From NCBI GenBank assembly GCA_018238545.1, contig JABCTC010000012.1, forward strand, positions 26,470 to 90,469: a stretch of DNA of 64,000 nt. Reading direction: 5' to 3'. Origin of the DNA: Candidatus Heimdallarchaeota archaeon. Lineage in GTDB: Archaea > Asgardarchaeota > Heimdallarchaeia > Heimdallarchaeales > Heimdallarchaeaceae. How positions within the stretch are numbered: position 1 is the stretch's first letter; every line of letters starts with the position of its first letter. Shown here piece after piece: positions 7,986 through 52,995 of the stretch. Both the position numbers and the translations under genes were made by a program. The notes below the pieces were generated by a model, which saw only the letters and a list, made by a program, of their open reading frames with translations, had not been told where the DNA came from and made no database searches.

Positions 7986-10889
<2,904 letters not shown>

Positions 10890-10950
10890 TGTTTTCAAGT
10901 GCAAAAAAAAGAAATAGAAAATCTCCTCTCCTCTAGTTTATTAATTTTGT

Positions 10951-11715
10951 TTAGTGGAATTCTTTTCTGAGAGCTTCTAGAATTCTATAGGAATCTGAGT
11001 AACTATCGTATTCTAGTACTTTCTCAAGCAAATTATTGAGAACAGGTTGAACTCTTACTGTAGCCATAGTAACTTTACTCTTGATTTCGTCAAGTTTCAA
11101 TCCATCAGGGGAGGAAGCAACAATTGACACTATCTCAGCTTCTGGGACATCAAGTAATCCTGCATCCATGAGATAAACAATAAGCTTGTTATCTTCTTTT
11201 GCTTGTGTTAGAATTGTTTGAGATTCGTTAATTTTTTGTTCCATGTCCTCGAGATCTTGTCTAGATTTCACTTCTAGATGGTTGTAAGCCTCTTCTTTGT
11301 TCTTTGCCGAGCTTGAAAGATGTTCTAGTTCTTGTTCCAGCCTGTTCTTTTCATTTTGTTGATTAGATATGCTAGCTTCAAGATCCTGTTTTTTGTTTCT
11401 CTTCTCTATCTCAGTTTCCTCTAACTCTCTTTTTTTACTTCTATTAATCTCAATTTCAGCAGAAACCGTTTCAATTGCTTGATTGGTTTGAATTATTTGT
11501 TGCTCCAAGTCTGCATTAACTTGTTTTAGATCTTCTAGATTCTTTTTGAGTGTATTAACATACTCAGGAATTGCTCTAATGTCCTCTACTACAGATTCTA
11601 ATGTTTGATTAGTGTTTGAAATAACTGAAGTGTTTCGAGAAGTTAATTCTTCTACATCACGTTTGATGTCGCCAATAATTGTTATCATTCTTTCTTCTTC
11701 TGCCATATCATTCAC
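10951..11715 (-). CDS. Long coiled-coil protein with C-terminal winged-helix domain
   Basis: About 175 aa of heptad-rich helix, then PEAEIVSIVASSPDGLKLDEIKSKV...VLEYDSYSDSYRI (wHTH pattern). Confidence 0.7.
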   Translation of the reverse strand: MNDMAEEERMITIIGDIKRDVEELTSRNTSVISNTNQTLESVVEDIRAIPEYVNTLKKNLEDLKQVNADLEQQIIQTNQAIETVSAEIEINRSKKRELEETEIEKRNKKQDLEASISNQQNEKNRLEQELEHLSSSAKNKEEAYNHLEVKSRQDLEDMEQKINESQTILTQAKEDNKLIVYLMDAGLLDVPEAEIVSIVASSPDGLKLDEIKSKVTMATVRVQPVLNNLLEKVLEYDSYSDSYRILEALRKEFH

Positions 11716-12468
11716 CTAAATATCAATCTCCGTTATAACTTGGAATTTTCCTGTATGAGATTCGAAAGTAATTATTTCTCGTTTAGCAAGTTCAACAAGA
11801 ATGTTTCTAATTATCTGTTCAGAAACTCCAGACATCTTCTTAAGATTCTCCTCTGTGTTAATGCCTGGGGTAGTTAAACTGCGGATAACCTGAACTTCAG
11901 GTAAAACCACAATATCCTTCTTGACTAAATACTTCAAAGCTTTTGAACGTGAAATCATCATTGTATATTGACCGTTCAAATCTGCTAATCGGATTTCTTT
12001 GCTTCTAATAGCTTCAGATGTATCGCTAGAAGTTGCTTGACTAAGAACATTTAGTTCTTCTACTTTCCTTTTGAAACCAGACATCTTTTCAGTAAGAGAA
12101 TCTACTTGCATTTTAAGCTCTGTAGAAATTTGCTCCCTTTCCATAATAAGATTCAAGAGCTGCTGGATATCTTTTTGCTTACTTGAAATCTCTGACTGGA
12201 GAACGTCTTTATTATGGGTAAGTTCTTGTAATTTCTGACTAAGTTGATTTAATTCAGTTGTGTTATTGCTTTTCTTCTCTTCTTCTTGAGCAATAACTTG
12301 ATTGAGCTCATCGGCTTGTTTGAAGTAAGCAGATAGAATTCCATTGATTTCACTAATCTTTGTCGCTACCTCGTCTTTCTTGCTTGAAAGAATCTGTTGA
12401 AGCTCATTGAGATTAGTAGTTACACGCTCAACATTATTTTGAGCCGATTCAAGATTTACTCTACTCAT
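11716..12468 (-). CDS. Long coiled-coil protein with C-terminal winged-helix domain (paralogue of the adjacent gene)
   Basis: Coiled coil, then PEVQVIRSLTTPGINTEENLKKMSGVSEQIIRNILVELAKREIITFESHTGKF. Confidence 0.7.
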   Translation of the reverse strand: MSRVNLESAQNNVERVTTNLNELQQILSSKKDEVATKISEINGILSAYFKQADELNQVIAQEEEKKSNNTTELNQLSQKLQELTHNKDVLQSEISSKQKDIQQLLNLIMEREQISTELKMQVDSLTEKMSGFKRKVEELNVLSQATSSDTSEAIRSKEIRLADLNGQYTMMISRSKALKYLVKKDIVVLPEVQVIRSLTTPGINTEENLKKMSGVSEQIIRNILVELAKREIITFESHTGKFQVITEIDI

Positions 12469-31757: not shown

Positions 31758-32813
31758 ATGGATCAGAATTTCTCTTCTAATACCACCTCAAGGAAAGATG
31801 AACATCTTAAGATTTGTATCGAAAAAGATGTAAAATACGAAAGTGTTGCATCTGGGTTTGATAATTACACTATTAGACCAAATATTCTTACAGAAATTTC
31901 ACCTGACGATATAGATTTGTCTACTACACTCTTAGGAAAATCGATGGATGCTCCTTTACTAATTGCAGGAATGACTGGAGGTTCAGAGAAAGGGAAAGAA
32001 ATAAACAAAATTATTGCTAAGGTGTGTGATGAATTCAATATCGGTATGGGGGTAGGTTCTCAAAGAGCAGCTATAGAAAATCCTGCTTTGACTGATAGTT
32101 TTCTAGTCAGGGATAGTGCTGTAAACATTCCCTTGTTCGCAAATTTGGGAATTGCTCAATTCTCTTCTGGATATTCAGTTAAAGAAGCAGAAAAAGCTGT
32201 TGAAATGATAAATGCGGACGGATTAACTATTCATATAAATCCTTTACAAGAATTCATTCAACATGATGGGCATAAGAGGTTGATGAATATTCAACAAAAC
32301 CTCAAAGATGTGGTAAGTGGGTGTAAATATCCAATTATCGTAAAGAGCGTAGGAACTGGTTTTTCTAAAGAAGATATGAAGTATTTATCGTCTCTCAACA
32401 TAGCTGCAATAGATATCGCTGGTGCTGGAGGAACTAATTGGAAAAAAATTGAAATGTATAGAAACCCCTCTCTGTCAGATCTTTCCTCCTCTCTAATTAA
32501 TTGGGGGATACCTACAGCTGATTGTCTTGTAAATGCTGTTGACGTTTTCGCTGGTTCTTCAAAGAAAATTATAGCTTCTGGTGGAATATGGAACGGTATG
32601 GATGCAGTAAAGGCTCTAATGTTGGGAGCAGACTATGTTGCGTTTGCTTTGCCTGCTTTGTTGGCAATCAGCAAAGATTCAGAAGCAGGATTGAGAAAGT
32701 TTATTCACAATTATATTTTGGAAATGAAAATAGTTCTAACAATGCTGGGTGTAACAAAACTTGAGGAATTAAGAAAGAAAAAAAACTTGTTAATGAGAAA
32801 AATTCCTCATTAA
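31758..32813 (+). CDS. fni: Type 2 isopentenyl-diphosphate delta-isomerase
   Basis: RKDEHL, GMTGG, GVGSQRAA, ANLG, HINPLQE, AGAGGTNW, IASGGI. Confidence 0.93.
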   Translation: MDQNFSSNTTSRKDEHLKICIEKDVKYESVASGFDNYTIRPNILTEISPDDIDLSTTLLGKSMDAPLLIAGMTGGSEKGKEINKIIAKVCDEFNIGMGVGSQRAAIENPALTDSFLVRDSAVNIPLFANLGIAQFSSGYSVKEAEKAVEMINADGLTIHINPLQEFIQHDGHKRLMNIQQNLKDVVSGCKYPIIVKSVGTGFSKEDMKYLSSLNIAAIDIAGAGGTNWKKIEMYRNPSLSDLSSSLINWGIPTADCLVNAVDVFAGSSKKIIASGGIWNGMDAVKALMLGADYVAFALPALLAISKDSEAGLRKFIHNYILEMKIVLTMLGVTKLEELRKKKNLLMRKIPH

Positions 32814-32886
32814 TAATTCAGACTAACTATGATTCGTCATAGAGTATAAACTCTCAGCACTCATTTTTCATCCTTTAGTTATAATG
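32808..32886 (-). ncRNA. Box C/D 2'-O-methylation guide sRNA
   Basis: Minus strand: C AGGATGA (32874-32868), 10-nt guide, D' CTGA (32857-32854), internal hairpin, C' ATGACGA (32840-32834), 12-nt guide ATCATAGTTAGT, D CTGA (32821-32818). Lies mainly in the gap between convergent genes. Confidence 0.7.
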
Positions 32887-32932
32887 ATTATTCGTATAAT
32901 TATCTCTTTTGATAGACACTAAATAACTCACA

Positions 32933-52915: not shown

Positions 52916-52995
52916 AATAGCGTGAATTATGATGAAGGTTTTACCGTTTGAGCCTATGGCAATGTAAAGAACGGCACCTCTGAGTTTACGCTATT
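52916..52995 (+). ncRNA. Box C/D sRNA with 12-bp terminal stem
   Basis: Stem AATAGCGTGAAT (52916-27)/GTTTACGCTATT (52984-95); C ATGATGA 52929-35; 12-nt guide; D' TTGA 52948-51; GCC-TAT-GGC mini-hairpin; degenerate C'; 11-nt guide; D CTGA 52980-83; AT-rich TATA-like element about 20-25 nt upstream. Confidence 0.78.

Follow-up and report, generated by a model that had tools for sequence, protein, structure and literature searches.

A box C/D sRNA in a Candidatus Heimdallarchaeota archaeon with a conserved guide predicted to target A1913 in helix 69 of 23S rRNA

A short intergenic locus of a Candidatus Heimdallarchaeota archaeon is, with high confidence, best explained as an archaeal box C/D sRNA, about 60 nt long and transcribed as a separate unit, whose D guide would direct the methylation of A1913 (E. 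coli numbering) in helix 69 of 23S rRNA and of this site only. The locus lies in a window of 64,000 nucleotides, the term window denoting the whole stretch of DNA that was analyzed. Reading of the four boxes places the 57-nt core of the sRNA gene at 32874-32818 on the minus strand (Table 1), with the boxes in the order C, D', C', D and within the span of 50-70 nt expected for an archaeal box C/D sRNA. An initial annotation of the same DNA had placed a C-D'-C'-D layout on the minus strand at 32808-32886. All four boxes are present and the gene is there, but its core is shorter than the interval given, the rest of which consists of unconserved flanks.

Table 1. Features of the sRNA locus and its neighbors (positions in the window)
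Feature	Position	Strand	Remarks
Box C, AGGATGA	32874-32868	-	6/7 to RUGAUGA
D' guide, decayed (orphan), 10 nt	32858..32867	-	one base shorter than ACAAGGCATTR of genus relatives
Box D', CTGA	32857-32854	-	perfect; relatives carry CAGA, CCGA, CGGA
4-bp hairpin closing the C'/D' motif	32853-32842	-	pairing kept across 11 sequences
Box C', ATGACGA	32840-32834	-	6/7 to consensus
D guide ATCATAGTTAGT, 12 nt	32833-32822	-	complementary to E. coli positions 1909-1919 (helix 69 of 23S)
Box D, CTGA	32821-32818	-	perfect; same in every aligned homologue
Promoter-like element, purine-rich BRE and TATA-like box	32895..32910	-	box C begins about 21 nt downstream
A/U-rich hairpin and T8 tract	32778..32813	-	antisense to 3' end of convergent IPP isomerase-like gene
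Type 2 IPP isomerase-like gene, convergent	31758-32813	+	name from motif reading
AN1-finger/M50-type protease gene	ends 32933	- (sRNA strand)	name from motif reading

The setting of the gene is shared across the host family, in which the sRNA is flanked by the AN1-finger/M50 protease gene on one side and the IPP isomerase-like gene on the other. The promoter-like element forms a conserved island in an otherwise diverged flank, as the strict motif is found at 19 of 20 same-genus loci and a one-base variant at the remaining one. This element suggests an independent transcription unit with a putative promoter of its own. The A/U-rich hairpin with its T8 tract is likely the 3' end of the sRNA or its terminator. 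This hairpin is restricted to the five closest genomes, most other relatives have T-rich tracts, and a scan for terminators with G+C stems did not call it. A scan for bacterial-type promoters and terminators was uninformative. It was also observed that the IPP isomerase-like reading frame is about 18 codons longer in the host and two close relatives than in other relatives, and that this lengthened frame, which overlaps the hairpin and T tract in antisense, stops 5 nt short of box D.

Several features of the core count against the assignment, namely the missing conserved terminal stem, the replacement of U2 of box C by G and an unremarkable fold (z-score of the core -0.79). No conserved flank pairing beside the C/D kink-turn was found in the host genus; terminal stems are visible in several distant homologues. 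The G at position 2 of box C occurs throughout the host genus, and the other genera of the family carry the canonical RTGATGA. In the predicted fold of the core, part of the D guide is base-paired to the decayed D' guide. An Rfam scan of the window returned no family at gathering score, and the C/D models that it listed weakly (E 0.15-7.7) are unrelated.

The target of the D guide was identified by pairing the guide with the host's own rRNA, a check that the initial annotation had proposed. As stated there, the 23S rRNA gene is outside the window; it is located on another contig of the assembly (C86:14042-17457). Host helix 69 reads GAGCUAACUAUGAGCUUC, with C instead of G at position 1910. The D guide ATCATAGTTAGT (32833-32822), which includes TCATAGTTA, forms 10 Watson-Crick pairs and one terminal G-U pair with this sequence, so the 9-bp match originally reported was real but understated. 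Helix 69 is the unique best site, the next best in the host 23S rRNA having 7 Watson-Crick pairs. The +5 rule points to host A2016, which aligns with A1913 of E. coli rrlB, in agreement with the first assignment. The eukaryotic equivalents named in that assignment are borne out by the literature: yeast Am2256, guided by snR63, lies two nucleotides before Psi2258, the equivalent of E. coli 1915 (PMC2794176), and human Am3760, guided by SNORD46, is the equivalent of yeast Am2256 (PMC11542601; PMC11550049). Separately, the host 23S match extends over 3416 nt versus 2904 in E. coli, and the host 16S gene (C86, about 10330-11900) is oriented divergently to the 23S gene, on the other strand.

The host genome encodes the proteins of a C/D sRNP. 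Genes for fibrillarin (PF01269, E 8.6e-92) and Nop5 (PF01798, E 4.7e-63) are neighbors on contig C63, and two matches to the L7Ae family (PF01248) are found on contigs C94 and C86. The proposed steps are based on the established archaeal C/D mechanism (PMC7994747). First, the sRNA would be transcribed from its own promoter. Next, L7Ae would bind the C/D and C'/D' kink-turns, and Nop5 and fibrillarin would assemble on the L7Ae-bound sRNA. The D guide would then pair with pre-23S rRNA, allowing fibrillarin to methylate the 2'-OH of the ribose of A1913, which is part of intersubunit bridge B2a. Judged from its sequence, the sRNA very probably guides Am1913. Loss of Am2256 in yeast has only small effects on accuracy (PMC2794176); consequently, the role of the modification is likely a fine-tuning of subunit joining and decoding.

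Considered in the host genome alone, the case for a real gene is moderate: it is suggestive, not decisive. About 1% of random genomic 12-mers reach a 10-nt match to host rRNA, and a relaxed genome-wide C/D scan gave 6 matches versus 4-12 in shuffled genomes, no better than background. Both results are what would be expected if the locus were a chance collection of box-like words in an AT-rich intergenic spacer. A strict genome-wide scan for C, C' and D boxes found at least 10 Watson-Crick pairs at this locus only, with 0, 0 and 1 such hits in three shuffled genomes. It is the comparative data that refute a chance origin, through conservation, synteny, recurrence against a control, covariation with the rRNA and near-identical published sRNAs, and they leave that origin a negligible probability. 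The boxes and D guide are kept in 20 of 23 same-genus genomes, with flanks that have diverged. The search for Asgard homologues suggested in the initial annotation proved productive, with the C'-guide-D pattern turning up in 126 of the 399 Asgard genomes, almost always once per genome, compared to 3 for the reversed control. The gene is established as a real sRNA gene because its boxes and guide are conserved between diverging flanks and because the pattern recurs across the phylum well above its control.

These counts rest on the strict C'-guide-D pattern, which was used in place of a looser phylum-wide pattern that gave excess background. By family, the pattern is present in 24 of 29 genomes of the host's own family (f1), 22 of 22 in f5, 6 of 6 in f14, 5 of 5 in each of f25 and f28, and about half of those in f31; in f20 it is near control level (2 of 135). 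The strict pattern gave no match in the sister families of the same order (f2-f4), where a looser pattern returned noise. In f3, whose helix 69 has C1915, a pattern adapted to that sequence found nothing in five genomes.

The D guide also changes together with its target. Among 32 genomes having both guide and rRNA, the guide position facing 1910 forms a Watson-Crick pair in all 32, and that facing 1918 does so in 31, with a G-U pair in the remaining one. At position 1910, C faces a guide G in f1 and f31, and G faces a guide C in seven other families. The set comprises kin from about nine families and represents about two independent changes at 1910; the 22 guides of f5 were left out of the count, the rRNA of that family not having been retrieved. 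Furthermore, 97.7% of cells in the C'/D' hairpin are paired over 11 sequences, compared to 27-55% in slid controls, and one two-sided change (U-A / C-G) is seen. This pairing lends modest support to the predicted C'/D' structure; the support is modest because the sequences are kin and not independent.

The D' guide has had a different history. The form ACAAGGCATTR, or one close to it, is shared by most other members of the genus and by two other genera of the family; it makes 9-10 Watson-Crick pairs with 23S rRNA and targets G1940, and the targets of the D' and D guides are 27-32 nt apart. A double guide with both targets in one rRNA region is the usual pattern (PMC6009581). The host D' guide, matched against the host rRNA and 28 predicted tRNAs, reached 6 Watson-Crick pairs at best; thus, the layout that was first described as full is complete in its boxes but has lost the target of one guide, which had been overlooked. 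The host copy lacks a D' guide with at least 9 pairs to a nearby target, which most genus relatives possess. The decayed D' guide occurs in five genomes and in three versions, and these genomes form a clade at 100/100 on the tree of the neighboring protease. A sixth genome, which belongs to another genus, may have lost its D' guide separately. In the host and in the relative G002, the rRNA sequence formerly targeted is unchanged, and no replacement guide for G1940, G1945, C1934, A1937 or A1938 was found in a C/D frame in the host assembly, which is 92% complete. The C34 of tRNA-Met was considered as a target for the decayed guide and rejected, as it gives only 6 Watson-Crick pairs and is not matched by the other decayed versions in the clade.

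The decay of the D' guide by one base in five genomes, and the position of the core next to the antisense 3' end of a neighboring gene, would be consistent with an sRNA gene in which both halves were once functional and which is now turning into a pseudogene in the host clade. Decay of the entire gene is nevertheless very improbable. All five genomes have the same four boxes, hairpin, promoter-like element and 12-nt D guide, even though they hold three D' versions and differ by 12-32% in the neighboring proteins. In addition, orphan second guides are common, making up 28% of Pyrobaculum guides (PMC6009581). The sequence evidence instead favors a host copy that acts as a single-site guide, in keeping with the high confidence placed in the explanation as a whole.

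Outside the host genus and its closest kin, the second guide is directed elsewhere. The D' guide targets G1945 in f5, f6, f10, f11, f15 and f25 (by script) and in f14, f18 and f28 (by eye), and in f31 it is aimed at about C1934. As a side observation on that position, family f1 has G1934 and other Asgard families have C. In two genomes of f19 (L069/G136 and L070/G137), box C, box C', the D guide and box D are kept, and the D' half is A/T-rich with no recognisable target; as read from their sequences, these appear to be another single-guide state. Metagenome loci were also noted (L133, L136, L145, L146 and 12 more) in which the D' guide is directed at A1938 with 8-9 Watson-Crick pairs and a TTGA box; these loci carry a crenarchaeal-type helix 69. 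With A1913 set equal to yeast 2256, G1945 corresponds to yeast Gm2288 and A1938 to yeast Am2281, both of which are sites modified in eukaryotes (PMC11542601). G1940 (yeast 2283) is absent from the plant-shared sites in the table of that study. With its various targets (G1945, G1940, about C1934 and A1938) and its losses, the labile second guide neatly illustrates how guides are retargeted. The host sRNA probably belongs to a widespread archaeal lineage in which the D guide is fixed on A1913 and the D' guide is labile.

A genuine C/D RNA could still act mainly as a folding chaperone of helix 69 or modify a neighboring nucleotide, with little or no methylation of A1913. Archaeal double guides have been proposed to serve as rRNA chaperones (PMC6009581), the terminal stem of the host sRNA is weak and its box C variant, and the published assignments of guides to A1913 are themselves predictions (PMC4644070). 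However, the distance from the D guide to box D shows no variation across all 126 genomes and two crenarchaeal sRNAs, and position 1 of the D guide is freely variable among homologues. An invariant register combined with a free first position is expected under selection on the +5 base. Moreover, a clamp on two sites was lost in the host together with the second guide, yet the D guide is invariant. A chaperone or a modifier of a neighboring nucleotide is accordingly considered improbable, and methylation of A1913 is preferred.

Guides for this adenosine have been described in other archaea. Helix 69 is a hotspot of archaeal methylation (Dennis et al. 2015, PMC4644070). In the alignment numbering of that study, sR91 of Ignicoccus hospitalis has A2179 as its D target and G2211 as its D' target (PMC4644070); A2178 of the alignment is E. 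coli A1912, which makes A2179 A1913, and G2211 is G1945. Similar to the host sRNA, sR91 is predicted to target A1913 through a D guide of 12 nt that pairs with helix 69 in the same register, and it has a hairpin between D' and C'. Its D' guide on the helix 71 region (G1945) matches those of many Asgard homologues, in at least six families. In contrast to sR91, the D guide of the host fits C1910 and A1916, the host box C is AGGAUGA, and the host D' guide is decayed, its counterpart in genus relatives being aimed at G1940 and not G1945. Compared as a possible orthologue of sR91, the host copy thus has the same D target and register but not the D' target G1945. Sulfolobus acidocaldarius sR113 has the same D guide as sR91 and no D' target (PMC4644070, Additional file 1). 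Its target is printed as "A21779" in PMC4644070, evidently a typographical error for A2179. Its D guide is predicted to reach the same adenosine as that of the host copy, and its targetless D' guide makes it a single-guide state as well; it differs in lacking the D'/C' hairpin and in having a canonical box C and a crenarchaeal helix 69 as target.

For the other five species of the Dennis supplement, a string search returned no guide of this kind (PMC4644070), and P. abyssi is not given for the A1913 site in a plant-centered table (PMC11542601); this evidence is too thin for a claim that the guide is absent from Euryarchaeota. A literature search, mostly outside subscription journals, found neither a description of C/D sRNA sets in Asgard archaea nor a measurement of Am1913 in any archaeon. 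The initial annotation had viewed the locus as an Asgard guide for an rRNA modification of the eukaryotic type. Taken as a distinctively Asgard trait, this view does not hold because guides for A1913 have been published for Sulfolobus (sR113) and Ignicoccus (sR91) (PMC4644070). Since crenarchaea have the A1913 target in common with Asgard archaea and eukaryotes, it is not a signature that joins the latter two.

In eukaryotes, yeast snR63 and human SNORD46 are likewise guides for 2'-O-methylation of the equivalent adenosine (Am2256 and Am3760). They differ in functioning as snoRNPs with Nop56/Nop58 and Snu13, in being longer RNAs and in their relaxed C'/D' boxes. The snR63 and SNORD46 families were not listed in the Rfam scan of the locus even at E values up to 10; the likeness to these families is in the target nucleotide and does not extend to their Rfam models. 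A comparable pair is archaeal sR12 and SNORD43-snR70, site-equivalent guides for which descent has been proposed, at another site and in the small subunit (PMC3511168). Hoeppner and Poole (2012) concluded that descent and convergence are inseparable for site-equivalent guides (PMC3511168), and this limit holds for the A1913 guide, seen in the initial annotation as a possible snoRNA ancestor or a convergent equivalent, because the target dictates the guide sequence. On a tentative and rather doubtful proposal, the A1913 guides form a single continuous line of genes that began in a TACK-Asgard ancestor as a double guide aimed at both A1913 and G1945, and that eukaryotes inherited and split into snR63/SNORD46 (Am2256) and snR75/SNORD15 (Gm2288). 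If this is true, hardly any other snoRNA family could be traced in the same way from archaea to eukaryotes; a survey in 2012 found no eukaryotic snoRNA family firmly tied to an archaeal one (PMC3511168). The host copy, as a derived single-guide member, is a weaker witness for descent than its two-guide homologues.

Among published archaeal methylation sites, most individual positions are not conserved (PMC6009581). A guide that is kept on a single helix 69 nucleotide, with compensatory changes, in many Asgard families and in two orders of crenarchaea points to Am1913 as an unusually old modification at the subunit bridge that has been under selection. Previous publications already cover the class of RNA, the mechanism and the A1913 target. 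What the present locus adds is mainly the family-specific shift of the D' guide to G1940 and its decay in the host clade.

Other observations concern helix 69 and further C/D RNAs. In the 23S genes L264 and L265 (f4, genomes G026 and G030), an insertion of about 800 nt lies within helix 69, the 5' half of which is found 813-814 nt upstream; a motif at the 3' end of the insertion is reminiscent of a group I intron S element. The C1915 of helix 69 noted for f3 is seen in L259 (G029), at a position that is pseudouridine in both E. coli and yeast. A second box C/D sRNA in the window (52929-52984, plus strand) has a D' guide that forms 10 Watson-Crick pairs and one G-U pair with the 530 loop of host 16S rRNA. 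For this guide the +5 rule selects the U that follows GG, which from its context is E. coli U531 and would correspond to yeast Um578/snR77; the D guide of this second sRNA reaches only 7 Watson-Crick pairs in host rRNA. Finally, a double-guide C/D sRNA is found outside the window on contig C48 of the host (about 43807, minus strand), with a D guide that matches the context of 16S C1402 (9 Watson-Crick pairs in a 12-pair run) and a D' guide that matches 23S rRNA at E. coli 2591 (10 Watson-Crick pairs).
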